Source: Bacteroidales bacterium (GTDB taxonomy: Bacteria; Bacteroidota; Bacteroidia; Bacteroidales; JAADGE01). From it: 64,000 nucleotides of DNA. Below are positions 4,246 to 43,070 of this stretch, piece after piece. Each line of letters begins with the position of its first letter. Positions within the stretch are counted from its first letter, which is position 1. Location: assembly GCA_021108035.1 (NCBI GenBank), contig JAIORQ010000097.1:7692-71691 (forward strand), in the 5' to 3' direction. A program made the translations under genes and the position numbers. The notes under the pieces are model-generated. The model ran no database searches and was not told where the DNA came from. It worked only from the letters and a program-made list of their open reading frames with translations.

Positions 4246-4256
4246 TATTATTAACA

Positions 4257-10199: not shown

Positions 10200-10236
10200 A
10201 GCTTCATAATGTTAAAGCAGTTAAGAACTAAGCAGG

Positions 10237-11664: not shown

Positions 11665-11753
11665 TTTTATATTTTTTGAAACAGTAAATATTTGAGCTTA
11701 AATATACAATTTCTATTAATTTTTTTCAGATAAATTCGTAAATTTCGTAAGCT

Positions 11754-24900: not shown

Positions 24901-25025
24901 TCCTCAATATTGCTGTTATTTTCTCTGTCTTGCCAATCACCAAGATATTTGTAGCCTAACTCATCTTGAAATAACTTTACAATTCGATTTTGGGTTTTGC
25001 GTTCTACTTGACCGGGTTTGTCCAT
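21975..25025 (-). CDS. hsdR: Type I restriction endonuclease subunit R
   Basis: 1016 aa. N-terminal nuclease region. Helicase motif I is HTQGSGKS and motif II is VDECHRTQ. The C-terminal helical domain is typical of HsdR. Confidence 0.9.
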   Translation of the reverse strand: MDKPGQVERKTQNRIVKLFQDELGYKYLGDWQDRENNSNIEEELLSAFLQRKGYSQQLINKAIYDFKTTAINFNDNLYTTNKNVYQLLRYGVKVKPEAGKNTETVHLIDWKNFKDNDFAIAEEVTIKGENTKRPDIVLYVNGIALAVLELKRSINDIGEGIRQSITNQREDYIQPFFAAIQYIFAANDSEGVRYGTIKTPEKYFLKWKENVEDTSRLLSDKYILKMCDKERFLEIIFDFVLFDAGVKKLPRVHQYFGLKEAQKYVNRYEGGIIWHTQGSGKSIVMVMLAKWILENNPNARVAVITDRDELDKQIEGVFKDADEKIYRTNSGRDLMRKLEQTTPRLICSLVHKFGKRDVTNFSKFISELKSQPSKAVGDLFIFVDECHRTQSGKLHQTMKAMLPNAVFIGFTGTPLLKQDKQTSLEVFGKYIHTYKFNEGVEDDVILDLLYEARDIDQKLRSDFKIDQWFDAKTKGLNDYQKSVLKKKWGTMQKVLSSRSRIDRIISDIIFDFGTKPRISSEKGNAILIAKSIYEASVFYDRFQNTEFKNRCAIVTSYNPASKDITKEDTGANTETQKEFIYNLYEDILKDVKAHPGKSKSETYEDWAKQKFTKEPANMKLLIVVAKLLTGFDAPSCTYLYIDKKMQDHGLFQAICRVNRLDGDDKEYGYIVDYMDLFSSVENAIAVYTSDLDYDNFEKQDIDILLKDRLEAGKARLDNALEEISLLCEKVEPPKDTLAYIRYFCGNTEIPEELKARETQRTALYKKTVSLIRAYANIADEIEEIYSPHEIGNIKKDIDFYLNLRAEIRNASGETTNLKTYEADMRHLIDTYIKAEETQKISHFDDVSLLEIIEKTGINNFIEGLTPGIKSNKSAVAETIENNVRRKIIKEHLIDPAFFENMSKLLGEVIKERKANAVSYEEYLKKIEEIVKSVNKGQTDDTPSIIKNFAQKALYNNLNKDTNLAIQIDAAVKVSKRDGWRGNKPKEQEIKSAVYKILNDIEETERIFKIIREQKEY

Positions 25026-25115
25026 TTGGATTTATTCTTTTGAGTTTCCTTTTAATTGTTCTTTTAAGTTTCTTTCTTTACATGAGCGGTATATATCTAT
25101 TGTTCCCGTTTTTAA

Positions 25116-26129
25116 TTATTGTTTCGGAAACAGTTTTTTTATTTCCTTATCAAAATCACTTTCAAATAAACTGTCTTGAATTATTCTGTATTTTTCAAAT
25201 TCTGTTTCTGCTTTTTCTTTTGCTATTTGGGCTGATATTTTTCCTGCATCTTGTAGTATTGCTCTGTCGTCATATTCTAAAAATAAGTCAAGTCTTTTTG
25301 CCCAATCTTGCATAGTCATAGGAATTTTACGCTTTGCACGTCCTTCGGCTAAATCCAAATAGGCATTAACAATACGTCCGAGAGCTTCAATTTCGTCTTT
25401 TATAAGATAGTTTTTAGCAATTGATACATCTGTTTTTATTATTTTACCGTCGGGGGAGTTTTTCCAAGATGTTAATCCCATTTTTTCTTTTGTGCTGTCA
25501 GCTCTTTTATGAATCAGTCCGGCTGCTGTGTGTCCGTGTATGCCGAAATGGAGTTTGTTTTGCACTTTTGCAAAAAACTCCTTTGTGGTAACAGCATCTT
25601 TATTGTAATCTAAACTTGTAGCATAAATATCGGTTACTTTTTGATAAAATTTACGTTCACTTAATCTAATTTCTCTTATTTCGGAAAGTAATTCTTCAAA
25701 GTAATTTTCGTTTAAAAAAGTTCCGTTTTCAAGTCGTTTTTTATCAATTACAAAGCCTTTAATTGCAAAATTACTCAAAACCTTTGTTGCCCATTGCCTG
25801 AATTGTGTTGCACGCAACGAATTTACACGATAACCTACCGAAATAATTGCATCAAGATTATAAAAATTTGTATTATAATTTTTGCCGTCATCGGCAGTTA
25901 TTCGAAATTTTCGAATAACTGAATTATCATCAGCTTCACCACTTTTAAAAATTTCTTTAAGATGATAATTTACTGTATTAGTGCCTACCTCAAAAAGTTC
26001 TCCCATAAGTTTTTGAGTGAGCCAAATTGTTTCATCTTCGTAGCGGGCTTCTATACTGTTTTTCCCGTCTTGCGAAGTAAATATTAAAAACTCTGCCGTG
26101 CTGTTTCTTATTTGTTTATTTTTTTTCAT
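25116..26129 (-). CDS. rhuM: RhuM-family protein
   Basis: N-terminus NSTAEFLIFTSQDGKNSIEARYEDETIWLTQKLMGELF and ISVGYRVNS...ATQFRQWAT are typical of RhuM. Overlaps the hsdS stop by 4 nt. Confidence 0.8.
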   Translation of the reverse strand: MKKNKQIRNSTAEFLIFTSQDGKNSIEARYEDETIWLTQKLMGELFEVGTNTVNYHLKEIFKSGEADDNSVIRKFRITADDGKNYNTNFYNLDAIISVGYRVNSLRATQFRQWATKVLSNFAIKGFVIDKKRLENGTFLNENYFEELLSEIREIRLSERKFYQKVTDIYATSLDYNKDAVTTKEFFAKVQNKLHFGIHGHTAAGLIHKRADSTKEKMGLTSWKNSPDGKIIKTDVSIAKNYLIKDEIEALGRIVNAYLDLAEGRAKRKIPMTMQDWAKRLDLFLEYDDRAILQDAGKISAQIAKEKAETEFEKYRIIQDSLFESDFDKEIKKLFPKQ

Positions 26130-27376
26130 AGCAAACGTATTTTCCCCGTTAATAACACCTGCATCATTCCCTGTTTTATTTGCCGGTATTTTGTTGTTTT
26201 CTTTTCTAATGCTTCTATTTCTAAATCCATATCGGAAAGGATTTGAGCGATAAGGGTTTGTTCGTTTAATGTAGGTAAGGGGATTTTCAATTGAGCATAT
26301 TCATTTCCATTAATTCCTGGTTGTCCACTTCTCATTGACATTATTTTCACCCAATTCCAATATTTTGTAGATTGTGTAAAATACTTTAAATATTTTGAAT
26401 TTAATTTTTTAGGATTTGGGCTTACTTTAATAAGGAAACCTGCATAAACTAACAATCCATCATTTTTATTGTATAGATAGGTTTTGCCAACACTTGCACC
26501 AGTTCTTGCAAAAACAATTTCGTTTTCTTTTAAATAGAAATCATTACTATTAGTTGCATCAACAGATGCTTTATTTTCATAAATAAAATTTCCATCTTCA
26601 GAAATATCTGTAATTCTTAAATATGTTGGTAAATTTAAATTGTATGACACAGCAGCGGCATTTATTCCGTAAGTTGGTCTATCAAACAAACAATTACCCA
26701 AAGTCCTAAGCTCCCAACCCTCTTTCGGAGTAAGCAATTTTTGCATTGCTCCTTGTTTTATTTTGCGTTTTTTGGCAATTAGTTTTTCAAGGGCTTGTAT
26801 TAATTTATCGGTATCGGACAGGACTTGGGCTATGGCTTTTTGTTCTGGGAGTGGTGGGAGGGGGATTTGGATATTTGCTAATTGTGAAGCACTAATATGA
26901 ACAACAGCATCTCCTTGTCCTTTGCTCGCCTTTTGTTTTTGAACAGTTTTATCATTTAATAAAAATCCTAAAAAAAGTGAATTTACTTTATTTGGTGATA
27001 ATATTACAATATCTCCACCAGCATATGCTTCTACATCTTTTGTATATGCAATACTTTTTCCAATCTCTGATTTTGTTTCACCTGAACCAGCAAACAATAT
27101 ATCTCCAATTTTAAGTTTTTTTGAAGTTAGAGCCACTTCATCTGATATGTAAGAATAAAATTCTTTGATATAATCGTAATGTTTTGTGTATATTTCTCCA
27201 TATCTGACACAAGGTATATAACCACTATTTGATTGGTCTTTTCTTATTCCTTGCCCTTTTGTAAAATTCCCAATACTTCCTAAATTTTTCACCTCCCAAT
27301 CCTCCGGAATAATTCCGATTTCAGTTTGTTTATATCCCTTTAATAAGTTTAGGGTATCAGTTTTTTTTACTTCCAT
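26126..27376 (-). CDS. hsdS: Type I R-M specificity subunit S (two target-recognition domains)
   Basis: Two TRDs are separated by conserved helices: LPPLPEQKAIAQVLSDTDKLIQALEKLIAKKRKIKQGAMQKLLT and LPTLNEQTLIAQILSDMDLEIEALEKK...KQGMMQVLLTGKIRL. Confidence 0.9.
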   Translation of the reverse strand: MEVKKTDTLNLLKGYKQTEIGIIPEDWEVKNLGSIGNFTKGQGIRKDQSNSGYIPCVRYGEIYTKHYDYIKEFYSYISDEVALTSKKLKIGDILFAGSGETKSEIGKSIAYTKDVEAYAGGDIVILSPNKVNSLFLGFLLNDKTVQKQKASKGQGDAVVHISASQLANIQIPLPPLPEQKAIAQVLSDTDKLIQALEKLIAKKRKIKQGAMQKLLTPKEGWELRTLGNCLFDRPTYGINAAAVSYNLNLPTYLRITDISEDGNFIYENKASVDATNSNDFYLKENEIVFARTGASVGKTYLYNKNDGLLVYAGFLIKVSPNPKKLNSKYLKYFTQSTKYWNWVKIMSMRSGQPGINGNEYAQLKIPLPTLNEQTLIAQILSDMDLEIEALEKKTTKYRQIKQGMMQVLLTGKIRLL

Positions 27377-28386
27377 GTCGTTTTGTTAATTTTCTTCTGC
27401 AATTCAGTTAAATTTTTTATTAAATTATCAAAAGACAGGGTTTTACCGTAAATCATGTTTTCTTGCATTTCTTTATAATCATCTTCCCAAAGATGTAATA
27501 CATTATCGGGAGGTATAAATTTTATATTATCCGGTTTTTGCTTTGTGTAATCAACACCCGAAACACGAGCAAATTTACTGCGATGTGCTACGATGGTATT
27601 ATACAAAACAGAATTATTTAATGCCGTTTCTGCAAAGTTTGTATGCATTAATTTTTCAATATCGTACAAATGACGGCTTAAACGTTCTACACGCATTTTT
27701 TCTTTCGGTCGTTGAAATTCTTCGTGTAAAAGGAATATTTTTTCTAAAAAAGTGCGTTCGGGATTTACGGTCGGTACAGTAATCGGTTTATCGGCAAACT
27801 TTCGGTCGGCAAAATATTCTGCCGTAAAAGTTTTAAATGTTTTTGCAGTATATGGTTCTTTCAAAGAACGGCTTCCTACTTCTAATAACACACCGGGTTT
27901 TAAATATGTTTCCGTTTCTGTTAATTTAGGATAATAAATTTCTATTATTACAGGGTCTTGGTCATGGTTTTTTACTTTTCGGTATTTAATATTAACATCT
28001 GAAAAACCGGCATCCGAAAATTTGTTTTTAAGTTCTTCAATAAATGTTGTTGTCATATATTCAAAAGATGTTCTTCTTAATCTCCGAATGTCTCCTTTGC
28101 TTAATTCACCTTTAAAACCGAGATATTCTCTGTTTAGAGCTAAATCAATATCTTCCGAAAAGCGTTCTATTAAATTCCATGCTTTGCTTAAAGATGTTCC
28201 GCCTTTAAAAACTAATTCGGAAGCACATTTCATTGAAAAGACAATTGCCAAAGTATTTACTACCCACCAATCTTTTTCAACAGCTGTAACAGGCAAGCCC
28301 ACTTTTTTGCCTGTTTCAACATAGATGTTACGTTTTGTATCATCAGGCAATTGTAACCACTCTTTTAAATGTTCCGGTTTATTCAT
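27367..28386 (-). CDS. abiEii: AbiEii/AbiGii-family nucleotidyltransferase toxin (type IV TA)
   Basis: FKGGTSLSKAWNLIERFSEDIDL motif. 339 aa. Overlaps abiEi by 8 nt and hsdS by 10 nt. Confidence 0.85.
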   Translation of the reverse strand: MNKPEHLKEWLQLPDDTKRNIYVETGKKVGLPVTAVEKDWWVVNTLAIVFSMKCASELVFKGGTSLSKAWNLIERFSEDIDLALNREYLGFKGELSKGDIRRLRRTSFEYMTTTFIEELKNKFSDAGFSDVNIKYRKVKNHDQDPVIIEIYYPKLTETETYLKPGVLLEVGSRSLKEPYTAKTFKTFTAEYFADRKFADKPITVPTVNPERTFLEKIFLLHEEFQRPKEKMRVERLSRHLYDIEKLMHTNFAETALNNSVLYNTIVAHRSKFARVSGVDYTKQKPDNIKFIPPDNVLHLWEDDYKEMQENMIYGKTLSFDNLIKNLTELQKKINKTTWK

Positions 28387-28984
28387 TTGATTTATCTGTA
28401 TTAAGCAGTTTCCTTATCCAATGCGGAGCTATATTCAAATCATGTTGTAAATGATACGGTTTTTCATTTTTCAGCAAGCCTCTTATCTTTTTCAATTCTT
28501 CGTCTGTAACATTATTTTTACCTATATTACGTAAAGCCTGAACTGCCAATTTGCTGATATTACCGATGTATGCAAGATTTTTTGCACTTGCTTTTTTAAA
28601 GGTTATGATTTGATTGTCTATTTTTATTTTACGTGCAGAAGCATCTGTATAATACACAATATTCATAGGCACTTGCGTTGTAAGTCCCAATTTATACATT
28701 GCATAACTTCCGGTAGGAATAATACGAGCTTTGTCTCTTTTTGCAATCGCAAGAGCAATCTCATCAATACCGGGCAATACAATTCCGATATATTTATCTA
28801 TTTTCGGTCTTGCATACATCCCTCTTGCTACTCTGTATATCTCTTTCGATTTAACCAGTCGTTCCAATGCCTTACTAACGGCTTTTGTATCACCTGTTGA
28901 TGCAAAACTGTCTGTAAAAAACAGCGTGCCCCTCTTGGCTTTTTTAATTTTATTAAACACCTTTATTTCAACACTATCACTCAT
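28379..28984 (-). CDS. abiEi: AbiEi-family antitoxin/transcriptional regulator
   Basis: MSDSVEIKVF...RGTLFFTDSF...AVSKALERLVKSKEIYRVARGMYARPK is typical of the AbiEi/DUF6088 N-terminal wHTH. The start was chosen at the internal Met; the ORF track extends to 29017. Confidence 0.75.
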   Translation of the reverse strand: MSDSVEIKVFNKIKKAKRGTLFFTDSFASTGDTKAVSKALERLVKSKEIYRVARGMYARPKIDKYIGIVLPGIDEIALAIAKRDKARIIPTGSYAMYKLGLTTQVPMNIVYYTDASARKIKIDNQIITFKKASAKNLAYIGNISKLAVQALRNIGKNNVTDEELKKIRGLLKNEKPYHLQHDLNIAPHWIRKLLNTDKSNE

Positions 28985-29038
28985 ATAAATACTATATATT
29001 TGTCGCAAATATAGCAAATATATGCGACATAATTTATT

Positions 29039-31480
29039 TTATAAGCCCATTTTCTTTAAATGCTTTTTAACTGTAAGTTCCAATTCCGATACTTCTTTTT
29101 CTATTTCATGCAAGGGTGTATCATATCGTTCCGAAAGTTCTTTTATTCTGTTTGTTAATCTTTGGCTTATATGCTCTATTTCATTTTTAATACTTGCTTC
29201 TGTGCTTTTCATCCATTTATCATCAAGTACCAATGTTTTTACTTCTGCTTCGGATAATTCAGAATATTTTTCATAAAGTTTATCATCCAAATCTTTTTCT
29301 GCATCTTTAATTTTCTTGTTATAATCTGCAAGTTGTTTTGTTAAATCAAGATATTGTTGCAATATCTCTTTTTCATCGGGTTTATTATCTCCGTATGTTA
29401 CTTCCGGTTCCGCAGCTATTGCCAAATTATCATTCTCAACTTTTACAATTTTTAAACGTTTTGTTACTTCATTTTTATTAATCTTTTCTAATTCTACGAA
29501 ACATCCTTCTTCTCCGCTGTGTTCTTCTTCGACTTCGACAAGCTCAGTCGCCACTTGTTCTTTTTCCGTTTCTAAATCAGCAACAGCCTTTTTTTTATCA
29601 GCAAAATATTTATTTATAACTAAATATTTAGGAACAAGGTCGCAAGTCCAACCTTTATCAATTTGCTTTTTGGCTTTATTTTCAGCAATTATGCGATAAG
29701 TTTCAGCTTTCCAACCGTCATACGAAATCAAATAACAATCGTCTTGCATGCTTTCATTCCAATAATTCATTAAATGTTGAAACATATCATATTTATCAAC
29801 TAATGCCATATCGGAATGCTTTTTCAGAATATTTTCTGAAAGTGTTTGAATTAATTCTTTCGGTTTGTTTCCTTTATCAATAATTTTCAAATATTCTGTA
29901 CTTTCATTTTTCCATTTCTTAAAAATTGTGTCATAATCTTTAATGAATGCCTTAAATTCAGGATGCTCAAAAATGACATCTTTTATCATATCCGTTTTGA
30001 CTTTCAATTCAGAATATTTGCTTTTTTTATCGGTTTTAAATAAAGCACTTTTCAAACTCGGAAATTGTTTCCAAAATTTACTTAAAGCATCAATATCTGC
30101 ATTTGGGATACCACCGTTTAAATGAGCATGTATATCCTGTATGTCTTCCGTTTCTTGGCTGTCGATATATCTCGGAATATTTAAGTTGTATTCGTTTTTC
30201 TCAATTTCATTAACTGATACAATTTTGCTGTATCCGGGAATTTCAATTTCATTGTTAAACACATCCGTAATTTTGCGAATATCCTGTTCTCGCAATCGGT
30301 TTTTGTTTCCGTCTTTGGTAAAACTTTTACCGGCATCAATCATAAAAATTCCTTTACGATTGTGAGCGTTTTCTTTATCTAAAACAATTATTGCAGCAGG
30401 AATACCTGTTCCGTAAAACAAATTAGCCGGCAAACCAATAATTCCTTTAATAAAACCTTTAAGTATAAGGTTTTCTCGAATATCAGCCTCTGCATTTCCT
30501 CTGAATAAAACACCGTGAGGTAAAATAACGGTTCCTTTTCCCTTTCGTTTTAATGAACGTACCATGTGGAGCAAATACGCATAATCACCGTTCTTTGAAG
30601 GCGGTATTCCGTAACCCTCAAAACGATTATATGATTTGTCATCGGGCAATTTAAGACCGTTACTCCAACTTTTATCACTGAAAGGCGGATTTGCAACTAT
30701 AAAATCAAAGGTTTTCAAACTTCCTTTTTCCTCAAAAAGCGGTTTTGCAAGTGTATTCCCTTGTTTTATCACGGCAGTCGGATTATTATGCAATATCATA
30801 TTCATACGAGCCAAACCGGCAGTTGTTGCATCTTTCTCTTGTCCGTATAAAGCAACTTTTCCTGTGGCTTCATCACCTACACGTAAAAGCAAAGAGCCCG
30901 AACCGCAAGTAGGGTCATATACAGTAATATTGGTTTCTTCTTTAACTTTATGAATACCGATAATCTTTGCCATTGTTCTGCTTACTTCCGCAGGCGTATA
31001 AAATTGCCCTTTACTTTTACCGCTTTCGGTTGCAAAATGTCGCATCAAATACTCATAAGCATCTCCGAGTATATCATCTCCTTCCGCTTTATTCTTGCTG
31101 AAATCTAATTCAGGTCTCTCAAATATGGCAATAAGATTTGTTAATCTGTCCACCATTTCTTTACCGTCACCTAACTTTGTAGGGTCATTAAAGTTAGGCA
31201 TATCGGACAGCTTATTTACTTCCGCTGTCGGTGCAATTATTTTCTTATTGATTTGGTCGCCTATATCAGTTTTTCCTTTTAGTGCAACCATATCCTTAAA
31301 ACTTGCACCTTCCGGAATTATGATAGGAGCAAATTCTTGTCCTTCCCATTTATCACTGATGTATTTTAAGAACAGCATTACCAATACATAATCTTTGTAT
31401 TGGCCGGCATCCATTCCGCCTCTTAATTCATCGCAACTTGCCCACAAACTGCTGTATAATTCTGATTTTTTTATTGCCAC
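29039..31480 (-). CDS. hsdM: Type I R-M DNA methyltransferase subunit M with long C-terminal coiled-coil extension
   Basis: GTG start. HsdM_N-like N-terminus (SELYSSLWASCDELRGGMD). Motif I DPTCGSGSLL and motif IV NPPF (IVANPPFSDKSW). About 290 additional C-terminal residues are rich in heptad-like K/E sequence. Confidence 0.9.
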   Translation of the reverse strand: MAIKKSELYSSLWASCDELRGGMDAGQYKDYVLVMLFLKYISDKWEGQEFAPIIIPEGASFKDMVALKGKTDIGDQINKKIIAPTAEVNKLSDMPNFNDPTKLGDGKEMVDRLTNLIAIFERPELDFSKNKAEGDDILGDAYEYLMRHFATESGKSKGQFYTPAEVSRTMAKIIGIHKVKEETNITVYDPTCGSGSLLLRVGDEATGKVALYGQEKDATTAGLARMNMILHNNPTAVIKQGNTLAKPLFEEKGSLKTFDFIVANPPFSDKSWSNGLKLPDDKSYNRFEGYGIPPSKNGDYAYLLHMVRSLKRKGKGTVILPHGVLFRGNAEADIRENLILKGFIKGIIGLPANLFYGTGIPAAIIVLDKENAHNRKGIFMIDAGKSFTKDGNKNRLREQDIRKITDVFNNEIEIPGYSKIVSVNEIEKNEYNLNIPRYIDSQETEDIQDIHAHLNGGIPNADIDALSKFWKQFPSLKSALFKTDKKSKYSELKVKTDMIKDVIFEHPEFKAFIKDYDTIFKKWKNESTEYLKIIDKGNKPKELIQTLSENILKKHSDMALVDKYDMFQHLMNYWNESMQDDCYLISYDGWKAETYRIIAENKAKKQIDKGWTCDLVPKYLVINKYFADKKKAVADLETEKEQVATELVEVEEEHSGEEGCFVELEKINKNEVTKRLKIVKVENDNLAIAAEPEVTYGDNKPDEKEILQQYLDLTKQLADYNKKIKDAEKDLDDKLYEKYSELSEAEVKTLVLDDKWMKSTEASIKNEIEHISQRLTNRIKELSERYDTPLHEIEKEVSELELTVKKHLKKMGL

Positions 31481-32197: not shown

Positions 32198-32647
32198 ATG
32201 GAACTTTTTGAACAAATTAATGCTGATATTAAAACAGCAATGAAAGCAAAAGAAGCTGACAAACTCGGTGCTTTGAGAGCAATTAAAGCTCAATTATTAT
32301 TGATTAAGACATCCGGCGGCGGTAAAGAAGAAATACCTGAAGAAGAAAGCATAAAAATGTTGCAAAGAATGATAAAACAAAGAAAAGACTCTGCCGAAAT
32401 ATATAAATCTCAAAACAGAGATGATCTTTTTGAAAAAGAAATGAAAGAAGTTTCTTTTATTATGCCGTACCTGCCCAAGCAAATGAATGAAAACGAATTA
32501 ACAGAAGTTATTAAAGATATTATTAAAAAAGTCGGTGCCGAATCTATGAAAGATATGGGCAAAGTAATGGGTTTAGCATCAAAAGAACTCGCAGGTAAAA
32601 CCGAAGGCAGATTAATTGCCGATAAAGTAAAAGAATTGTTGAAATAA
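32198..32647 (+). CDS. GatB/YqeY domain-containing protein
   Basis: MELFEQINADIKTAMKAKEADKLGALRAIKAQLLL... is typical of the YqeY family. 149 aa. Confidence 0.85.
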   Translation: MELFEQINADIKTAMKAKEADKLGALRAIKAQLLLIKTSGGGKEEIPEEESIKMLQRMIKQRKDSAEIYKSQNRDDLFEKEMKEVSFIMPYLPKQMNENELTEVIKDIIKKVGAESMKDMGKVMGLASKELAGKTEGRLIADKVKELLK

Positions 32648-32649
32648 AA

Positions 32650-33546
32650 TTATGATTTCAGACGATCTGTGTTTTTATATCTTGCATTTTCTGATTTGTA
32701 AAACTTATATAAAAGATAATAAATTACAAATTCATTTTGTCTTGGTTTTACAATAAATATTCTGTTAAGCATCATATGGGATTGGCTTATTATAAATTTA
32801 TTAATAGGAACATCCTGTTTATTTTTTGCATTTAATTCTAATATTGAACTAATAATATCTTTAGTGTTTTCACTTTTTAACAATATTAGATTATAAAGTG
32901 AATTCAAATATTTAAGACCTTTCTTTTTGTCAGATAACAGTGAATTTAGAATTGGCCTCAAACTTCTAAACTTCATGTCTAACTGTTTTTTAAATTGTTT
33001 GTTCATAGAAAATTCATAGTCGAAATTTTTTACCAATTCTTCAAACATCAGAGATTTACTGTTTGAAGAAAGGCCAAAATCGCTGAAAAAATTATCTACA
33101 GCCATTATTGCAAACCTCCATCTTAATTCTTCACTGTCTTTTCCTCTTATTAGATTTGCCGTTTCAGAAACCATAATACTGTCATAATAAAAAAGAGTTT
33201 CCGCTTCTTCAATCGTAATTTTGCCGTATCTTTCAATCTCACGCTTATATGTGTCAATTTGAACCGAGAAAATAATTAAATCCTCAAAATATTCACTCAA
33301 ATATTCTTTCATTAATTTTATTACTTCATAAAATAATTCATTATTTATTTGAAATCTTATTCTTAAATGAAACTGAGGATCATGATATCTGATAAAAAAC
33401 CATTTATTAATAATCCCTTTAGCTGTAAGCTCTTTGGTCATCGGCAGGATTATTTTTATTAATATTTCTTCAGCAATTTTCTTACCGGTGTATATTTTAT
33501 AAAATAACCATTCCTCTCCAATCAAAAAGTTTCTTTTGAGCGTCAT
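32650..33546 (-). CDS. Split LanB, elimination-domain protein (SpaB_C / thiopeptide-type bacteriocin biosynthesis domain)
   Basis: 298 aa. WFFIRYHDPQFHLRIRF matches the hallmark FF-x-RY-x-D...HLRLR motif of LanB C-terminal/TIGR03891 proteins. Begins 6 nt downstream of the glutamylation-domain gene. Confidence 0.8.
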   Translation of the reverse strand: MTLKRNFLIGEEWLFYKIYTGKKIAEEILIKIILPMTKELTAKGIINKWFFIRYHDPQFHLRIRFQINNELFYEVIKLMKEYLSEYFEDLIIFSVQIDTYKREIERYGKITIEEAETLFYYDSIMVSETANLIRGKDSEELRWRFAIMAVDNFFSDFGLSSNSKSLMFEELVKNFDYEFSMNKQFKKQLDMKFRSLRPILNSLLSDKKKGLKYLNSLYNLILLKSENTKDIISSILELNAKNKQDVPINKFIISQSHMMLNRIFIVKPRQNEFVIYYLLYKFYKSENARYKNTDRLKS

Positions 33547-33552
33547 ATCTTT

Positions 33553-35760
33553 CTAACTTTTATTCTTTTTAAAAGCAAAAATGAATTCATTAGCAAAATA
33601 ATCGTCATTTTCCTTAATAAATGCATTCTTCTTATTAAATAACACTTCTGATAAAAAAAAGATTTGTTTTTTCTTAGCAATTGAAAGAAAGGTTTTAATA
33701 CTTGTTATGTTTTCCAAGTTAAGCGTCAACTCATTTTCTCCTTCCTCAAAATTTACCCAAACCGGAATATTTTTTCGATACCTCCATTTTTTTACTTCAG
33801 CAGATAATTTGTTATCATTATCAATTTTGAATATATATTCAATTTCATCTTTAGAAATCCTCCATTTTGCAGGTGAAAATATTATATTCTTATATTTTAC
33901 TCTCGGAAAAAATTTAAAAGCAGTTTCTATTCCTCCCCAATTAAATTTTATACCTCTTTGTAACTCTTGAAATTGTAAATCACAAAGAAATTGATAAACC
34001 GGCAATTTACTGTTTACATAATTATGTGCGTTACTTAATCGCGGTAAAATTTCTTTATTAAGATTTTTTGATTTTAATATTAAACGATTCTCTTTCACTG
34101 ATATCATTAAATCTTTCGGATAAATTATGTGGTTCCCGGTTACAGAAGGTTTTGCAAGATAGGGGATTTCATAATTTCTTAAAACAGGCCTTAATAAAAC
34201 ATTCCCGATACTGATTTTTGGATTATGCACAATTTCAGCTGTAATTTTATTACGATTTGATTTTTCCTCACTATTTAATATTTCATTTATAAAATCAGAT
34301 ATATCTTCGTTTATATAGCCAAATCTTGAAAACAAATTAGTTGCACTTATTCCGCCTGCCTTCTGTAATAATATTTCAATATTATCATTTGCTTTATAAA
34401 TTTGAACTTTAACAGATAATGTTTCCGGAAAATCATCCCATACAGGTTCATCAGTATTATTAATAATTTCTTCATGAGTCAGAACAATTTCATACTCATT
34501 ATTCTTAACGGCATCAATGTACTTTGCTAATAAAAACTGACTAATACCGGTAATTGATATGTTTGATTTCCTTTTTTCTTTCGGGAAATCAATATTATCT
34601 GTTAAAGGAGATGATATCCCGATATTTTCTTTGTCACTTTTATATCCTATGCCAATTTCTTTATCTAATGCAAACAATAACGGAATTTCAGATTCCCCGT
34701 ATCTTTCGTAAAATTCGTTTCTGAACTTAATTAAATTTATCTCATTGCTTCTTTGTGATAATCTGTTTAAAACATTAATACCTTGCATAATACTGCCGGT
34801 AATATTTTTATTTACTGTAAGATTCTCAGCAGGTTTATATAAATCAACATGAAAAATTCCGGTATCATCATAATCAATATTCAAACTCCTTATTTGATTT
34901 TTTAATTTTTCATATTCAGAAATATCAATTGGAACCGGTTTTGAATTAATACTCTTAACAGAATCTGAAATCTCTGTTATTTCTTTTAAAACCGGATTTT
35001 CAATTTTATATTTACTTAATATTTTAATAATTTGAGTTAAATAATCTTCTCCTGTTGCGACCGGTTCCAGTTCAGAAATTAGAATGTCATTTTCAATTAG
35101 TTCATTAATAAACACTTCAGCTTCATAGGCAGTAATTTCATTATCAACAAGTTCTTCTGTTAAATGTTTTATGTCAATACCATTTTCGGCTGTATCTAAT
35201 ATCCGGTCTAAATAATATGTTTTTTTTACTGCTGCAACATGATGATTAATTTTATCTTTATTTTTTATTTGTTCAATATATCTTATTTTATTACCTGCTT
35301 CGTAAATACTTGAATTAGGGTAAAACTTTATTTTCTTTCTAATATCCTGTAAATTACATAACTGATCAGTTAAAGTTTTAAGGAAATCCATATTTAATCG
35401 CAGATATCTTTTATTCTTCTCTATGAGAGGCAGTTTAATAATATTTTCGTCTGATAATTCACCGATTGAAATTCCTGCAAATAATCCAAAAGGTGTTGAT
35501 CTTGTTGATAAGCGACTAATATATTTTAAAATAGATATCTTTAAGCTTTCTAATTCTTTGCTTTTTGAAAAATCATTCAATTTTTGCAGTTTCGAATATA
35601 AATTATATGAAGCAAAGAACAAAGCCTCTTTAATAACTTGATTATTTATAATCGCCGTAAAGGTTTCATCTGAAATAACTTCCTCTTTAAGTATGTCTTT
35701 CAGATAATTAAAAGGCATTAAGGGAGATCGTAATATGAATTTATTAAAAGCCTGATACAT
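33553..35760 (-). CDS. Split LanB, glutamylation-domain protein (lantibiotic dehydratase N-terminal family)
   Basis: 735 aa. N-terminal FILRSPLMPFNYL and LSTRSTPFGLFAGISIG match conserved Lant_dehydr_N features. Confidence 0.8.
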   Translation of the reverse strand: MYQAFNKFILRSPLMPFNYLKDILKEEVISDETFTAIINNQVIKEALFFASYNLYSKLQKLNDFSKSKELESLKISILKYISRLSTRSTPFGLFAGISIGELSDENIIKLPLIEKNKRYLRLNMDFLKTLTDQLCNLQDIRKKIKFYPNSSIYEAGNKIRYIEQIKNKDKINHHVAAVKKTYYLDRILDTAENGIDIKHLTEELVDNEITAYEAEVFINELIENDILISELEPVATGEDYLTQIIKILSKYKIENPVLKEITEISDSVKSINSKPVPIDISEYEKLKNQIRSLNIDYDDTGIFHVDLYKPAENLTVNKNITGSIMQGINVLNRLSQRSNEINLIKFRNEFYERYGESEIPLLFALDKEIGIGYKSDKENIGISSPLTDNIDFPKEKRKSNISITGISQFLLAKYIDAVKNNEYEIVLTHEEIINNTDEPVWDDFPETLSVKVQIYKANDNIEILLQKAGGISATNLFSRFGYINEDISDFINEILNSEEKSNRNKITAEIVHNPKISIGNVLLRPVLRNYEIPYLAKPSVTGNHIIYPKDLMISVKENRLILKSKNLNKEILPRLSNAHNYVNSKLPVYQFLCDLQFQELQRGIKFNWGGIETAFKFFPRVKYKNIIFSPAKWRISKDEIEYIFKIDNDNKLSAEVKKWRYRKNIPVWVNFEEGENELTLNLENITSIKTFLSIAKKKQIFFLSEVLFNKKNAFIKENDDYFANEFIFAFKKNKS

Positions 35761-35788
35761 AACCTTTAGGAGTTGTAAAATATAAAAA

Positions 35789-35834
35789 ATGCTGTTTAAT
35801 TATAATTTTTATTTAAATCATAACCAAACAGCAT
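35789..35834 (-). terminator. Hairpin plus T-run between the precursor and dehydratase genes (candidate read-through attenuator)
   Basis: On the minus strand, ATGCTGTTT...AAACAGCAT forms a 9-bp stem with a 28-nt AT-rich loop, followed by TTTTTTAT. Confidence 0.4.
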
Positions 35835-35891
35835 AAAAAATATCGACAATAAAAATGTAGATATTGTTAAATACAATCAAAATATATTTTC

Positions 35892-36086
35892 CTATGTAAT
35901 TTCTGTTGTATCAGTTGGATCATTTGTTGTATCACTCGGATCAAACACAATTGTATCACTTGGAGCAAGCACAGTATCAATTTCAGTACCATTTCCGCCT
36001 TTAATTGTATCCAACAGCTTATCATTTAGTGTAAAAACTTCTTCTTTATCTAAAAATAGTTTCGATTTTAAACTTTTATTTTTCAT
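35892..36086 (-). CDS. RiPP precursor peptide (GG-type leader; Cys-free Ser/Thr/Asp-rich core)
   Basis: 64 aa. The leader MKNKSLKSKLFLDKEEVFTLNDKLLDTIKGG carries an FNLD-like FTLND box and ends in GG. The core is NGTEIDTVLAPSDTIVFDPSDTTNDPTDTTEIT. Lies immediately upstream of the split LanB on the same strand. Confidence 0.75.
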   Translation of the reverse strand: MKNKSLKSKLFLDKEEVFTLNDKLLDTIKGGNGTEIDTVLAPSDTIVFDPSDTTNDPTDTTEIT

Positions 36087-36145
36087 TTTGGAGAATTTTA
36101 TGTTAATAATAAGACAAAGTTAAAAAAACATTTTAAAATAAAAAA

Positions 36146-38269
36146 TTAATCATCATACCAACTGATCTCTCTTATAAAAGCATCCGTAAATCCGTCTGCA
36201 TGAACTCTTACGAGATATTTTTCTGCATCTGATTTAAATTTATATTTACCGAATGTATAATGATTTAAATTATCTCTGCCGCTTCTTAACTTAACTTTTC
36301 CCCTGAAATCCTTAAAAAATCTGTGATCCTTTGAAATTCTTCTTTTAAATGCACCTAATTGGATAGTATAAACACCTCTTATGTTACCGTCATCAAGTTC
36401 TGTTACATCCGTATTATCAACAACATCATTAAATGCATAATCTGCACCTGTTTTATCAAGAACTGTAATTACAATATCTTCATTTAATTCAGTATAACTT
36501 AAAAGATCAACAAAGATCATATCTTCAGTCATTCCTTCACCTTTTAAATAATCAATAATATTTTGCTTTCTTTCTTTAAAAAGATTATCATCTGAATTTC
36601 CTGAAGATGATATGTTAATAACAAGATCATTATTATTGTTCATAAAGTCTGAAAGAATATTTAAAAATAAATAATTTTCATTATTCAATTTTGCATCATC
36701 ACCTTCATAATCCAAAGAATAAACTTTGTGTACTTTGCCTCTTTCAATTTTATCTAATTTAAACGACCCCAGATTCTTTTCTGAATTATTATCGTATGGT
36801 GCTGAAAACGTAAATGCTTCAAAAAAATGACCGGCAGCTTCTAAAGCAGTAAAATAATTATCTCCTCTGATTATTCTTGTATTAAAATTTCCGTTGTAAT
36901 CTGTATTTGAATTATAAACAAGTTTTTTGTTACTGATACTGTTGATTTTTACTTTATTTTGAACATCATCTTCATTTACTGCATTCCCTTTAACTAAAAG
37001 ATAAAATAAAGAAGAATCGGCATAATCTACCATATAGATATCTCCTCTACCCTTCCCTTCAGGTCTTTTTGACATGAAATATCCTTTCTTTTTATCACTT
37101 GTAACAAAATAAAAAATATCATCTTCCACAGAGTTAACAGGCATTCCCAAATTATGTGCTTTTTCAAATCTGGTAGGGCTACTGCCTTTTGCACTGAAAA
37201 TATCATAGCCTCCTATAGAATTATGTCCTTTTGAACTGAAATACAATGTTCCGTCTTCGTGTATATAAGGACTTTCTTCATCAAATTTTGTATTGATTTT
37301 TCTGCTCAAAGGTTTTGCTTCTGACCATTTTCCGTCACTGCTTTTTTTCATAAAGTATATATCTTTTCCTCCTCTTCCTCCTGGACGATTACTTGAAAAG
37401 TAAATAATACTTCTCTCTTGATTCATTGAAGCATGGGTTTCATTGTATTTTGAATTAATTGCTTTGAATTTTTCAGGTTTAGACCAAGCATTTCCTGTCA
37501 ACCGGCTACTGTATATATTTCCGTTTTTGTATATCAACATAAAAGTACCGTCTTTTGATGCCCAACAATTTGCCTCATTATCAGCAGAATTTATAGGTTT
37601 GGAATACGGATCAGGTTCTTTATCATTTTCATTATTAATATAAATAAAAAAGATATTTTCGTCAAACTCTCCGTCATCTGTTTTTTTATCATTAAAAAAA
37701 GATGTTTTTTCTTTCGATGTATATAAAAAAATGCCTTGATCTTCAATCAAAAACGGTGAATGTTGTGTAAATTCAGTATTTATACCTTCTCCGGGAGAAC
37801 CAATTTTTACTTTCTTCCTTATCTTAAATTCTTCTATAGCAGCTTCACAAGCCCTTATCTCATTTTGTAAAATAACTGTTGACCTGTATTTTTTGTATGC
37901 TTTATTAATTACCAATTCATTATAAATATCAATTGCTTCATCAAACTTATGATTAACATGATATGCTTTACCTAATAAAAATTTTGCATCAATATATTCT
38001 TCACTTTTATTTTTTTGCTGAAGTAAACTAACGGCTTTTTGAAGAGCAGGAATGGCAAGAGACTGTTTTTCAGGTGTTCTGATATAACACTCACCCAAAT
38101 TCATATGATATTCAGCTTTATCAGGATCTTTTTCAATTAATTTCTCATACATTTCTATTGCTGCCGGAAAATCACCTGCCAATAAAAGTTTTTCGGCTTT
38201 TTTTGCACTTTGACCGAAAATGAGTGTCGTAGTAAATATCAAACTGATAATTAGTAGAATCTTTCTCAT
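36146..38269 (-). CDS. TPR / PD40 beta-propeller / SPOR-domain envelope protein
   Basis: Signal peptide and N-terminal TPRs. PD40-like repeats (IIYFSSNRPGGRGGKDIYF, TLYFSSKGHNSIGGYDIF). C-terminal SPOR-like YTIQLGAFKRR... Confidence 0.7.
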   Translation of the reverse strand: MRKILLIISLIFTTTLIFGQSAKKAEKLLLAGDFPAAIEMYEKLIEKDPDKAEYHMNLGECYIRTPEKQSLAIPALQKAVSLLQQKNKSEEYIDAKFLLGKAYHVNHKFDEAIDIYNELVINKAYKKYRSTVILQNEIRACEAAIEEFKIRKKVKIGSPGEGINTEFTQHSPFLIEDQGIFLYTSKEKTSFFNDKKTDDGEFDENIFFIYINNENDKEPDPYSKPINSADNEANCWASKDGTFMLIYKNGNIYSSRLTGNAWSKPEKFKAINSKYNETHASMNQERSIIYFSSNRPGGRGGKDIYFMKKSSDGKWSEAKPLSRKINTKFDEESPYIHEDGTLYFSSKGHNSIGGYDIFSAKGSSPTRFEKAHNLGMPVNSVEDDIFYFVTSDKKKGYFMSKRPEGKGRGDIYMVDYADSSLFYLLVKGNAVNEDDVQNKVKINSISNKKLVYNSNTDYNGNFNTRIIRGDNYFTALEAAGHFFEAFTFSAPYDNNSEKNLGSFKLDKIERGKVHKVYSLDYEGDDAKLNNENYLFLNILSDFMNNNNDLVINISSSGNSDDNLFKERKQNIIDYLKGEGMTEDMIFVDLLSYTELNEDIVITVLDKTGADYAFNDVVDNTDVTELDDGNIRGVYTIQLGAFKRRISKDHRFFKDFRGKVKLRSGRDNLNHYTFGKYKFKSDAEKYLVRVHADGFTDAFIREISWYDD

Positions 38270-38352: not shown

Positions 38353-39969
38353 TTAAAATTTTTCATCATACTTTGTCCATAAAAAGTCACCTAATTCCCA
38401 TGCTTTTTGAACAACAGCATTTCCTTGTTTTATAGTGTATTCTGTTAAAAATTTCTTAAGTTCCTTTTTATTCTTGAAATTCATCGCTTTTTTCTCAAAA
38501 TCTGCTTGTGCTTCAAATAAATTTGTTTGCATAGGATTCCAAACAGCATCAACATCATGTCGCATATCACCCCAACGTTGTGCAGTTAAAGTACCAAGCC
38601 TGTTAAAAGCCCACCAAGCAGATTCTCTTGTATATCCTTTAGTTCTGCCGGGTGTTTTATACGATTGAGGTAAATCATTTACACCGCAATAAACCGGAAT
38701 ATAAATTGATGTTGCAATATTATCTTGTGCTAACCAAACAACACCGCCAATTTCATCCGGCAACCAACCTCTGGATTGTGTTATGGTTCCGTACATTGTG
38801 TACCAACGAGCAATGGTTCTTTCTCCCAGAAATCTAATATGACCATCATCTGAAACATGATACCAACCACCGCTTACATTGCTGATATTCAAATGATCAT
38901 AAGGCATAAACGGATTAGCCAAAGGAGAAATGATCTTATTTCCGTTATCATCATAAGTTGTGATATTCCTTGTCATATCATAAGGCGTTCCCTCAAAATA
39001 ATCCTTGAAAACATTAACAACATCCTGCAAACTTATCTTTTTATCAGGTTTTACTGAAAACGGATAATTCTCATCATCAGGGTGTAACTTTAACGACGGA
39101 GCAAATAAATCAAGGGTGCGCCATTCTCTTCTTCTTGCAGCTACTGATGTTCTGCTTTTAGGTGCATAGGTATAACAAAACTCAAAATCTTCTTTATTTC
39201 CGTTCCACCAACCGTTTTCTTCAGCAACTGAATAAATATTCTCTGAAGCCAAAAAATAATCAGAATTATCCAAATCTATCTTTCTGATGCGACTTGCATT
39301 TGCATTTATGGAAACATGATCATCCGGAACACGTTGTGCCACCCAAACAGCACCGGTTTTTCCTTTTCCCGGACCAACGATCTCAAAATGCCAAACTTCT
39401 TTTGTATCAGCTATAGTAAGACACTCTCCAAAATCACTCCAACCATATTTCTTGGTTAATTCATCTGCTGTTTGAATAGCTTGACGAGCTGTTGTACAAC
39501 GCTCAAGCATTAATTGACATAACCTTTGGCAATCAATCAAACATTCATCTGATTGAAGCTCATCTCTGCCTCCGAAAGTAGATTCCCCTATTGCTAATTG
39601 ATGCTCATTCATAGAAGGATAAGCTGTATTTAAAAAAGCATAAGTATGTTTTACTTGCGGAATGTTGCCTATCGGTGTATGTTTATAAGCAGGCATGGCA
39701 AAAGTGTCAGTACTTGTACGCTTATACATACTTGTAACATCTCCTTTCTTATAATCCCTTGCCGGAACAATATCCATCCAAGATCGTGTTTTATGACTGT
39801 CATCGGTATGTGAAGTTATTACAGAACCGTCTGTTGTAGCATTTTTACCTACGGTAATACTTGTGCATCCTTCCGGTACTCCTCCTGCCCAATCGCTTTT
39901 GTCTTGAGAAGACAAATTAGTGCTTAATAGTATAACTATTGAAGCTGATAATATTAATATTTTTTTCAT
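38353..39969 (-). CDS. C69-family dipeptidase (secreted)
   Basis: Signal peptide followed by GCTSITVGKNATTDGSVITSHTDD, the Ntn-type nucleophile Cys context of peptidase C69. 538 aa. Confidence 0.8.
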   Translation of the reverse strand: MKKILILSASIVILLSTNLSSQDKSDWAGGVPEGCTSITVGKNATTDGSVITSHTDDSHKTRSWMDIVPARDYKKGDVTSMYKRTSTDTFAMPAYKHTPIGNIPQVKHTYAFLNTAYPSMNEHQLAIGESTFGGRDELQSDECLIDCQRLCQLMLERCTTARQAIQTADELTKKYGWSDFGECLTIADTKEVWHFEIVGPGKGKTGAVWVAQRVPDDHVSINANASRIRKIDLDNSDYFLASENIYSVAEENGWWNGNKEDFEFCYTYAPKSRTSVAARRREWRTLDLFAPSLKLHPDDENYPFSVKPDKKISLQDVVNVFKDYFEGTPYDMTRNITTYDDNGNKIISPLANPFMPYDHLNISNVSGGWYHVSDDGHIRFLGERTIARWYTMYGTITQSRGWLPDEIGGVVWLAQDNIATSIYIPVYCGVNDLPQSYKTPGRTKGYTRESAWWAFNRLGTLTAQRWGDMRHDVDAVWNPMQTNLFEAQADFEKKAMNFKNKKELKKFLTEYTIKQGNAVVQKAWELGDFLWTKYDEKF

Positions 39970-41306: not shown

Positions 41307-43070
41307 ATGAAATTCATAACAACAGCATTAATTTTATTAGCAAATTTGTCAATTTTTGCTCAAAGTATAACACAAAAAGAGCTGAAAGAACATGTTACTT
41401 ATTTGGCATCAGATGAATTAAAAGGCAGAAAACCCGGAACAGAAGGCGGAAAACTTTCGGCAGAGTATATAAGAAATGAATTTAAAAAATCCGGTTTGAT
41501 ATTACAGGGTGATGACGGTTTCCAATATTTTAATATAGTTACCGGAATTAAACATAAAAGTAATAATCATTTATATATCAATAAATTCAGTTGCAAAGCA
41601 TTGGAAGATAACATTCCTTTTCCTTTTTCCGGAAACGGAACGGTTTCAGCTAAAGCAATTTTTGTAGGATACGGTTTTGATATTAATACTGATAAAATTG
41701 AATGGAATGACTATAAAAATATTGACGTAAAAGGAAAATGGGTTCTTATATTAAGAGGCGATCCGGAAATGAAAAATCGTAACAGTGATTTTATTCCATA
41801 CAGTTCTGATCGTTCCAAAGTAATGACTGCAATAAAAAAAGGTGCTGCCGGAGTTTTAATGGTTTCAGGGGAAACTTTTGACAGAGACGATAAATTAGTC
41901 GAATTAAAATACGGAAGAGGTAATGCTCAAGTTGAAATTCCTGTATTGCATGTCAGCAGACAAGTAGCAGACAGAGTATTAAATAACGACAAGTCAATTA
42001 CAGATTATGAAATACAACTAATTCAAGAGAAAAAAACAAAATCATTTGTAACAAATTCTGTCATAAAAGCAATCGTTAATATTGAATATGTAAAAACACA
42101 GACTCAAAACATAACAGCAATGATACCGGGGAATAATAAAACATTATCGGAAGAATTTATTGTAATTGGTGCTCATTACGATCATCTTGGTTTCGGCGGA
42201 AAAAATTCCGGTTCGAGAATGCCTGACACTATTGCTGTTCATAACGGTGCCGATGATAATGCTTCGGGGATTGCATCAATTCTTGAGATTGCTGAACGGT
42301 TTAAAGACGAAAATATTAGACCCGACAGAAGTATTTTATTTATCGCCTTCGGAGCTGAAGAAAGAGGTTTATTAGGTTCTTCTTATTTTGTAAATAATCC
42401 TTTAATTGATATGAATAATGTTTATGCCATGTTAAATTTAGATATGGTAGGCAGATTAAATGAAGAAAAAACTGTTACAATTTCAGGAACAGGTACGGCA
42501 ATAGAATTTAATTCATTTTTAGATACATATAAAGATAAAACAGATATAAAATTTGCATACTCTCCCGGAGGATACGGTGCATCTGATCATTCATCATTCT
42601 ATTTAAAAGATATACCGGTTCTGTTTTTTAATACAGGGGCACATCAAGATTATCATACACCTTTTGATGATGTTGAAACGTTGAACTTCCCCGGACAGGT
42701 AAATGTTACCAATCTTATTTTTGATATTCTTACTGATCTTGCCGAAAGAAAAATAAATTTGACTTTTCAAACAACAGGAAATCCGAAAAATTCAAGATCA
42801 CACAGCAGAGGTTTTAAAGTTACTTTGGGAATTATGCCCGGATTCGGCGATAACAGTAATAAAGGATTGCGTGTTGACGGAACAAGAAAAGACGGACCTG
42901 CAGAAACAGGAGGAATGAAACGCGGTGATGTTATCACAGCCATAAACGGTGAAAAAATCTCCAATATTTATGATTATATGGAGATTCTCGGCAAATTAGA
43001 AAACGGACAAAGAATTATGGTGGATATTATGCGTGAAGGAAAAAAAGTTGTTTTAGCAATTCAATTGTAA
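41307..43070 (+). CDS. Secreted M28-family aminopeptidase with PA and C-terminal PDZ domains
   Basis: M28 motifs HYDHLG, GADDNASGIASILE, GAEERGLLGS and DHSSF. C-terminal PDZ-like GMKRGDVITAINGEKI. Confidence 0.8.
   Translation: MKFITTALILLANLSIFAQSITQKELKEHVTYLASDELKGRKPGTEGGKLSAEYIRNEFKKSGLILQGDDGFQYFNIVTGIKHKSNNHLYINKFSCKALEDNIPFPFSGNGTVSAKAIFVGYGFDINTDKIEWNDYKNIDVKGKWVLILRGDPEMKNRNSDFIPYSSDRSKVMTAIKKGAAGVLMVSGETFDRDDKLVELKYGRGNAQVEIPVLHVSRQVADRVLNNDKSITDYEIQLIQEKKTKSFVTNSVIKAIVNIEYVKTQTQNITAMIPGNNKTLSEEFIVIGAHYDHLGFGGKNSGSRMPDTIAVHNGADDNASGIASILEIAERFKDENIRPDRSILFIAFGAEERGLLGSSYFVNNPLIDMNNVYAMLNLDMVGRLNEEKTVTISGTGTAIEFNSFLDTYKDKTDIKFAYSPGGYGASDHSSFYLKDIPVLFFNTGAHQDYHTPFDDVETLNFPGQVNVTNLIFDILTDLAERKINLTFQTTGNPKNSRSHSRGFKVTLGIMPGFGDNSNKGLRVDGTRKDGPAETGGMKRGDVITAINGEKISNIYDYMEILGKLENGQRIMVDIMREGKKVVLAIQL

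Follow-up and report, generated by a model that had tools for sequence, protein, structure and literature searches.

A Cys-free precursor beside a split LanB dehydratase in a Bacteroidales genome: a candidate locus for a linear dehydro-peptide within the class I lanthipeptide lineage

What can a lanthipeptide dehydratase make when the peptide encoded beside it has no Cys and no cyclase gene lies nearby? The question is raised by a three-gene locus in a 64-kb window (the whole stretch of DNA analysed here), taken from an 83-kb contig in a metagenome-assembled genome (MAG) of Bacteroidales. The locus encodes a short precursor peptide and the two proteins of a split LanB, LanB_N and LanB_C, on the minus strand (Table 1). 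With moderate confidence, and arguing from sequence comparison, we favour the explanation that the locus is a functional, pared-down descendant of a class I split-LanB cluster of Bacteroidota, which would have lost LanC and the C39-ABC exporter and would make a linear, acidic dehydro-peptide.

The identity of the three genes had been proposed in a first-pass annotation of this DNA made from its letters, and profile searches agreed with it. LanB_N matched Lant_dehydr_N (PF04738) at 4.7e-137 over 645 of the 649 profile positions, LanB_C matched Lant_dehydr_C (PF14028) at 6.9e-62 over the full profile and TIGR03891 at 7.7e-60, and the precursor matched lant_leader_L1a (NF038153) at 4.3e-6 (residues 1-31; 26.8 bits against a cut-off of 22). 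The gene positions, the 6-nt gap between the enzyme genes and the convergent yqeY gene beyond them were likewise as that annotation had given them. A stop codon and this gap separate LanB_N from the downstream LanB_C open reading frame (ORF), so that the glutamylation and elimination domains lie on separate adjacent polypeptides, as in most of 170 relatives. The precursor leader is of the class I type: it contains an exact fit (LFLDKEEVFTL) to the LxLxKx5L motif of Bacteroidetes class I precursor leaders (PMC7268733), ends in Gly-Gly and was matched by a local leader hidden Markov model (HMM) at 8e-11. The same model found no second peptide with a matching leader in the 64 kb, leaving the adjacent precursor as the only one. 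By inspection the precursor has no Sec-type signal, and carries the GG leader instead.

The active site of LanB_C was mapped with a profile of 30 LanB_C sequences aligned to NisB (4wd9). Both arginines that bind the glutamate gamma-carboxylate, the conserved Glu, the catalytic Arg and the catalytic His are present (Table 1), giving a complete anti-elimination site. These residues are the signature of anti-eliminating glutamate lyases (PMC9486935), and NisB H961A is dead in vivo (PMC4341554). Retention of the gamma-carboxylate-binding arginines is an argument for glutamate remaining the leaving group. Of the 47 columns that 90% or more of the relatives conserve, only three are changed in LanB_C, all conservatively, and the protein groups with the elimination proteins encoded in lanthipeptide clusters. 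LanB_N, which matched NisB, MibB and 9g04, has the features of a LanB glutamylation domain. It retains the equivalents of NisB Y80, R83, R87, T89, D299 and R464, while the equivalent of D121 is Asn, with an Asp two residues on.

Pfam matches were precomputed for 23.5-45.8 kb of the window and every other ORF of 120 aa or more was scanned; local HMMs built from the LanC and C39-ABC proteins of relatives were run on six-frame ORFs of the 64 kb. LanC (PF05147) had no match in any frame of the window with the local HMM, nor in the Pfam annotation. No C39 peptidase, ABC exporter, YcaO, LanJ-type or other gene for tailoring a peptide made by ribosomes and modified after translation (RiPP) was found in the window by Pfam and local HMMs, which bears out the earlier statement that cyclase, protease and exporter are missing there. 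The window contains one PF14028-type ORF only, the one bearing the elimination residues.

The core contains no Cys, Lys or His; it has nine Thr, two Ser, six Asp and two Glu, with a net charge of approximately -8. The Cys needed for (methyl)lanthionine is absent both from this 33-aa core and from the 35-aa core of a variant described below. A Cys-containing ORF in another frame over the core (35867-36025) was considered and rejected, having essentially no Ser/Thr and no leader.

Approximately 170 related loci were gathered (word-indexed protein matches with their contigs, 80 genome loci and 80 metagenome loci). In the great majority, LanB_N and LanB_C adjoin LanC, often with a C39-ABC exporter too, and the leader is of the same type. 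None of the 172 distinct cores of LanC-linked loci was free of Cys (median of five). In a neighbour-joining tree, the window LanB_N falls inside one LanC-linked clade, on the longest branch of that clade. Its closest relatives are 43-51% identical (50-51% in LanB_N for the four nearest) and have Cys-rich precursors, LanC beside the genes wherever upstream context exists and often a C39-ABC exporter. Two of them (L174 and L175) have the order LanC, LanA, an erythromycin-esterase-like (EreA-like) gene, LanB_N and LanB_C; a third (L094) has a LanA with six Cys directly upstream of LanB_N, and a fourth (L003) a C39-ABC gene directly downstream. The context of the 51% relative (P0004) is a 3.9-kb Logan contig with no upstream sequence. 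Nesting within a LanC-linked clade, together with the Cys-rich precursors of the relatives, indicates that the window locus arose within an ordinary lanthipeptide clade and was then reduced. Three events thus coincide on a single branch: LanC and the exporter were lost, the Cys-rich core gave way to a Cys-free one, and LanB_N was remodelled. The best match among GTDB representatives was 46% identical. A single-protein scan of JGI metagenomes found no close relatives; a profile scan of them gave 80 loci, the nearest (L094) at 50% identity. For the precursor, a word-indexed search yielded the window sequence itself and a single variant, and an exhaustive phmmer search against 1.84 billion representatives contributed nothing further but spurious repeat proteins.

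A second strain was found, in the form of three short ENA contigs. Two of them (L012 and L013) span the end of the PorE-like gene upstream of the precursor, the precursor itself and the start of LanB_N, and the third (L176) continues through the remainder of LanB_N and through LanB_C into the end of yqeY. The gene order (PorE-like gene, precursor, LanB_N, LanB_C, yqeY) is identical in both strains. Flanking DNA is 97-99% identical between them and the leader-coding DNA is identical at 81 of 93 nt, but identity falls to 55% (60 of 108 aligned nt) where the core is encoded. The variant core, TDTLLPIDTLITPSDTTEIAPSDTLNVPGDTVITD, has 35 aa and is again Cys-free and based on DT repeats. Both enzyme ORFs are intact in the two strains. 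By the Nei-Gojobori method, the enzymes show 17 synonymous differences over 572 sites and 19 non-synonymous ones over 2413, giving a pooled ratio of non-synonymous to synonymous rates (dN/dS) of 0.26 (binomial P = 1.3e-4 against neutrality); for LanB_N the ratio against the strain variant was 0.13-0.32. We read this as purifying selection that acted after the events on the branch, which would point to a shift of function rather than decay.

A hairpin followed by a T-run, folding as RNA at -33 kcal/mol (z = -6.1), lies between the precursor gene and LanB_N; it is the sole terminator-like site within 32400-36400, and the strain variant conserves both arms of the stem. The structure resembles a terminator or attenuator that would set the ratio of precursor to enzymes. 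A hairpin after the precursor gene is common in lantibiotic operons, where it keeps precursor transcripts in excess. The shared gene order, the dN/dS of 0.26 and this conserved hairpin argue against a dead remnant. Upstream of the precursor, a scan for sigma-70 promoters gave background level only. One site fits the Bacteroidetes -7 box consensus TAnnTTTG, which Bayley et al. reportedly described in 2000; as promoter evidence it was given little weight, the motif occurring at chance level in the AT-rich window (112 observed against 112 expected).

At the DNA level the core repeats in tandem, with periods of 21 and 24 nt (Tandem Repeats Finder scores of 66 and 73). In the window core the encoded units of 7-8 residues begin with D-T-(V/I/T) and mostly finish with P-S/T: DTVLAPS, DTIVFDPS, DTTNDPT and DTTEIT. 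The units of the variant are DTLLPI, DTLITPS, DTTEIAPS, DTLNVPG and DTVITD. Both alleles retain two P-S-D-T motifs spaced by exactly eight residues. In all nine D-T motifs of the two alleles (four in the window, five in the variant) Asp-Thr is followed by V, I, L or T. Every one fits D-(S/T)-(A/I/L/V/M/T), the sequon of the general protein O-glycosylation system of Bacteroidota, which is nearly completely occupied in non-cytoplasmic proteins and is also glycosylated when engineered (PMC8550257, PMC12871550). That modification is periplasmic, takes place on non-cytoplasmic proteins and depends on a transferase that is still unidentified (PMC12871550). The four sequons in 33 aa and five in 35 aa correspond to 0.12 and 0.14 per residue, against 0.0028 in 184 other cores of the same leader family and 0.0038 in the window's own proteins, a density approximately 45 times the background. 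The Poisson probabilities of this enrichment (P = 3e-6 and 7e-8) are overstated, as the repeat units share ancestry. An allowed third residue was found in 27% of the D-(S/T)-x triplets of background cores, against nine of nine here. Conservation of D-T-hydrophobic in two alleles that differ at nearly all other core positions shows that the motif is under selection. Three readings of the Asp-Thr repeats can be given: this LanB may simply need Asp before its target Thr; the sequon threonines may be glycosylated after export; or the acceptor Thr may be converted by LanB to dehydrobutyrine (Dhb), yielding an electrophilic mimic of the sequon.

Under the favoured explanation of a working dehydratase locus, the precursor transcript would be in excess over the enzymes because the hairpin follows the precursor gene. 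LanB_N would recognise the class I-type leader and move glutamate from Glu-tRNA(Glu) onto Thr and Ser of the core, and LanB_C would remove it by anti-elimination to leave (Z)-Dhb and dehydroalanine (Dha). No thioether, lysinoalanine or pyridine ring would form, and no known Michael-type cross-link would be possible since the core lacks Cys, Lys and His. The predicted product is a linear, strongly acidic peptide with at most 11 dehydro residues and four DT-hydrophobic...P-S repeats. The leader would be cut after Gly-Gly, and export would depend on a peptidase-containing ABC transporter encoded elsewhere. It is dehydration itself, the residues modified, processing and export in trans, and a biological role that we infer here. 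Of the product foreseen in the first-pass annotation, the dehydrated anionic peptide is retained, as a Cys-free core cannot become a lanthipeptide, and the cross-link without Cys finds no support, the single PF14028 protein having an elimination site. The independent, undescribed system that it had envisaged becomes a derived member of the Bacteroidota split-LanB lanthipeptide clade, with LanC-linked relatives. It had missed the second strain, with purifying selection on the enzymes and a hypervariable core, the tandem-repeat core in which every Asp-Thr fits the O-glycosylation sequon, and the unusual remodelling of the glutamylation protein.

This remodelling is one of several points that weigh against a working locus. 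LanB_N departs from its relatives at 14 of the 115 columns conserved in at least 90% of them, compared to three in the median relative, and this count ties for the highest among complete family members in the alignment. The replacements are P52Y, D123N, N125D, Y164Q, Y166K, R171I, Q225D, K300T, Q304H, E355G, L513N, E515K, R517S, D675E and F706V. D123N and N125D turn RLDMN into RLNMD, D123 being the equivalent of NisB D121, and L513N, E515K and R517S turn HLPESR into HNPKIS. At these positions the closest relatives and the other LanC-less clades are canonical except for scattered changes at 125, 164, 166 and 706, which makes the replacement set as a whole specific to this lineage; no convergent substitutions were found in the other LanC-less clades. 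Asp before Thr, the arrangement repeated in the core, was reportedly found by Rink et al. in 2005 to be a poor context for NisB. A mutation of D121 in NisB abolished dehydration in vitro, according to a review. D123N was considered as proof of inactivity and judged not decisive, since NisB D121A, for all its reported inactivity in vitro, behaved almost like the wild type in vivo (PMC4341554). Further, the activity of LanB_N is a prediction from its sequence, no leader protease or exporter of a known type is encoded within the 64 kb, the absence of partner genes was seen for the 64-kb window, and selection was measured over the short time span that separates two closely related strains, the only ones from which the lineage is known.

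The same deviations of LanB_N would suit an evolutionary relic: with LanC and the exporter deleted, the genes left behind would be drifting, the Cys-free repeat core would be a degenerate LanA and the locus would yield no modified peptide. Loss of LanC and LanT where nearly all relatives have them, the position on the longest branch of the clade, the low GC content of the locus (26.6% compared to 31.3% for the window) and the defence island next door go the same way. We nevertheless consider a relic unlikely: the enzyme ORFs are intact and under purifying selection in two strains, the LanB_C active site is fully conserved, and the fast-diverging core is still in frame, still free of Cys and still equipped with the GG site and all nine DT-hydrophobic motifs, the opposite of neutral decay. 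A different account is that the enzymes work chiefly for Cys-containing precursors and a LanC encoded at another site of the genome, with the Cys-free peptide next to them a minor substrate or none. The data cover the window only, many Bacteroidota loci have several precursors and more than one LanC, and gene order is fluid, LanC lying upstream of LanA in the closest relatives and not between LanA and LanB. Such trans-acting enzymes are, however, improbable, because the adjacent peptide is the only one in the 64 kb with a matching leader, was kept with the enzymes in both strains and has a core evolving like a selected RiPP core, and because the branch that gave rise to the Cys-free core also gave rise to the unique substitutions in the enzyme.

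The repeats themselves suggest two further possibilities. A macrocycle without thioethers, either a pyritide-like pyridine made from the two conserved Ser or an ester from Asp to Dhb, would be in keeping with the two P-S-D-T motifs kept exactly eight residues apart in both alleles and with pyritides being a known Cys-free, LanC-less family with a split LanB. It is very improbable, since pyritides need a second PF14028-type [4+2] enzyme where the window has one protein of the elimination type, no other tailoring gene was found in the window, and we know of no precedent for addition of a carboxylate to Dhb. Alternatively, the sequon Thr may be O-glycosylated in the periplasm while LanB acts only on other Ser/Thr, namely the Ser of P-S and the second Thr of DTT. 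The nine conforming D-T motifs, their density over both backgrounds, and the reported occupancy of natural and engineered motifs all fit this account, as does the organism, a Bacteroidales with a type IX secretion system (T9SS). It is rather improbable nonetheless: the repeat units are not independent, the precursor has a GG leader and an uncertain route to the periplasm, the GG-leader exporters of relatives are paired with HlyD/AprE-like partners that would bypass it, the cytoplasmic LanB precedes periplasmic steps and may remove the acceptor hydroxyls, and no glycosylation genes were identified near the locus. Also unlikely, in our view, is the broader idea that the repeats exist as O-glycosylation sequons, giving either a multiply O-glycosylated secreted RiPP or a Dhb-containing sequon mimic that could trap or block the O-oligosaccharyltransferase of competing Bacteroidota. 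Under the sequon-mimic reading, the 14 substitutions in LanB_N would be an adaptation to accept Thr preceded by Asp.

The remaining features of the window are collected in Table 1. The protein encoded upstream of the precursor has TPR and PD40 domains, as the first-pass annotation had said, while the SPOR domain named with them has no Pfam match. It gave a partial, below-cut-off match to PorE/CHU_0125 OmpA-like models, and is similar both to PorE, which belongs to type IX secretion, and to outer-membrane proteins of the OmpA-like type. On the other side, YqeY has a GatB/YqeY-type domain, related to tRNA-binding modules, and abuts the Glu-tRNA-dependent dehydratase in both strains; a yqeY gene adjoining LanB was not seen in the relatives, and its place beside a tRNA-dependent dehydratase is probably a coincidence. 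Just past yqeY lies a defence island in which type I restriction-modification genes are interleaved with DUF6088, AbiEii and RhuM genes, followed by a YgjP-like metallopeptidase gene. Two genes further off are each split into two ORFs. The halves of mfd overlap by 4 nt, which is a frameshift, a pseudogene or an assembly error. Those of a tyrosine integrase overlap by 29 nt; this gene is probably frameshifted and marks a mobile element at the end of the window.

Table 1. Positions of the locus, its mapped active-site residues and other features of the 64-kb window.
Feature	Position	Strand	Description
Precursor gene	35892-36086	(-)	ORF, 64 aa
Precursor leader	35994..36086	(-)	31 aa; MKNKSLKSKLFLDKEEVFTLNDKLLDTIKGG; NF038153, Gly-Gly end
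Core peptide	35892..35993	(-)	33 aa + stop; NGTEIDTVLAPSDTIVFDPSDTTNDPTDTTEIT
-7 box match	36115..36122	(-)	TAACTTTG; 28 nt upstream of precursor ATG, in 59-nt intergenic region
Hairpin + T-run	35779..35834	(-)	Perfect 20-bp stem
LanB_N	33553-35760	(-)	ORF, 735 aa; glutamyl-tRNA-dependent Ser/Thr glutamylation protein of split LanB
LanB_C	32650-33546	(-)	ORF, 298 aa; glutamate-elimination (lyase) protein of split LanB
LanB_C R62/R64			NisB R784/R786; bind glutamate gamma-carboxylate
LanB_C E103			NisB E823; conserved Glu
LanB_C R106			NisB R826; catalytic Arg
LanB_C H257			NisB H961; catalytic His
yqeY	32198-32647	(+)	PF09424, 2e-43; convergent, 2 nt from LanB_C stop
Type I restriction-modification genes (defence island)	21262-31480	(-)	HsdM, HsdS, HsdR
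C69 peptidase	38353-39969		Not a known lanthipeptide leader protease
M28/PDZ peptidase	41307-43070		Not a known lanthipeptide leader protease
S41 peptidase	52137-54041		T9SS C-terminal sorting domain; not a known lanthipeptide leader protease
Cyclophilin	7655-9835		T9SS C-terminal sorting domain
GH18 chitinase-like protein	16822-18564		T9SS C-terminal sorting domain
Nuclease/phosphatase	19860-21029		T9SS C-terminal sorting domain
PKD protein	46150-50223		1357 aa; T9SS C-terminal sorting domain
Peptidyl-prolyl isomerase genes	2816-4688	(+)	Two FKBP-type and one cyclophilin-type in a row
mfd, split	55671-59008	(-)	375 aa (UvrB_inter) and 737 aa (CarD_TRCF, DEAD, Helicase_C, TRCF)
Tyrosine integrase, split	62782-63820	(+)	Arm-DNA-binding ORF, 164 aa; Phage_integrase catalytic ORF, 190 aa

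Some observations were also made on the related loci. The erythromycin-esterase-like gene (PF05139) between LanA and LanB_N in two close relatives (2230-3456 in L174, 2049-3236 in L175) may be an uncharacterised tailoring or immunity gene. Another relative (L006) has an S41 peptidase gene directly after LanB_C. Isomerase genes similar to the three in the window lie just downstream of two lanthipeptide clusters (L004 and L008), and their presence near both may be a trace of a shared neighbourhood. Other LanC-less split-LanB loci exist in a Flavobacteriia clade and in two Acidobacteriota loci, phylogenetically separate from the window. The latter two (L017 and L018, from Aminicenantes/Acidobacteria MAGs) have split-LanB pairs with no LanC in the available flanks and no precursor by the leader model; their sister (L080) has LanC.

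If active, the locus would be a natural case in which a LanB dehydratase works by itself to give a linear dehydro-peptide, without chemistry of the thioether, azole or pyridine kind, and would extend what 'lanthipeptide-like' clusters can make. Its LanB would be a variant that tolerates Asp before the target Thr, possibly useful for peptide engineering. If inactive, it would be a clean snapshot of a lanthipeptide cluster being dismantled. The sequon-like repeats tie a RiPP pathway to the Bacteroidota-specific O-glycosylation system. A LanB with no LanC is by itself not very surprising to specialists; the combination with selection, enzyme remodelling and a sequon-repeat core is notable.

No characterised pathway of LanA and LanB only with a Cys-free core was found in the literature searched, whose coverage was limited. 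Similar in gene content are the LanC-less loci of Flavobacteriia (Aquimarina, Tenacibaculum, Winogradskyella and Chryseobacterium sp. SN22; L051, L059, L067, L069, L071, L073, L079 and L085), of which the same literature gave no description. They combine LanBN-LanBC (LanB_N at approximately 10000-12200 in most) with short precursors of 0-3 Cys, and LanC is absent within 10 kb. They differ in forming a separate clade, in keeping the canonical LanB_N residues, in cores that are not DT repeats and in carrying a TPR/AraC-type regulator gene and an S8 peptidase gene after LanBC, with HlyD and ABC genes upstream. Pearlins share with the window locus a LanB-superfamily enzyme (PEARL, or short LanB), no LanC and no Cys in the peptide; PEARLs, however, have no elimination partner and add amino acids at the C-terminus of the peptide, whereas the window encodes an intact elimination protein 6 nt downstream. 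Linaridins (the cypemycin family) share the expected product type, a linear ribosomal peptide with Dhb from Thr, but are dehydrated by enzymes unrelated to the tRNA-dependent LanB and have an unrelated leader and core. No linaridin-related family was among the Pfam matches of the window ORFs, for which no dedicated LinH/LinL model was run.

Pyritides and thiopeptides (TbtB/TbtC, MroB/MroC) also have a split glutamylation and elimination pair, and pyritides resemble the window locus further in a precursor free of Cys and in having no LanC. In both, a second protein of PF14028 type is required as pyridine synthase, and in thiopeptides YcaO azole enzymes are required as well; the window has one PF14028 ORF and neither YcaO nor another tailoring Pfam family. 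Closest by descent are the class I split-LanB clusters of Bacteroidota (pinensin type; Chryseobacterium and Runella clusters, expressed in PMC9993889), and the window locus would correspond to the dehydrating half of the class I pathway. The window locus lacks two features that define a lanthipeptide cluster, LanC and core Cys, and it differs from these relatives in having neither LanC nor C39-ABC in 64 kb, no core Cys compared to a median of five, and the 14 replacements in LanB_N. It shares with them the leader family (LxLxKx5L...GG, NF038153) and the two-protein dehydratase, and its LanB_N, 43-51% identical to theirs, is nested among them.

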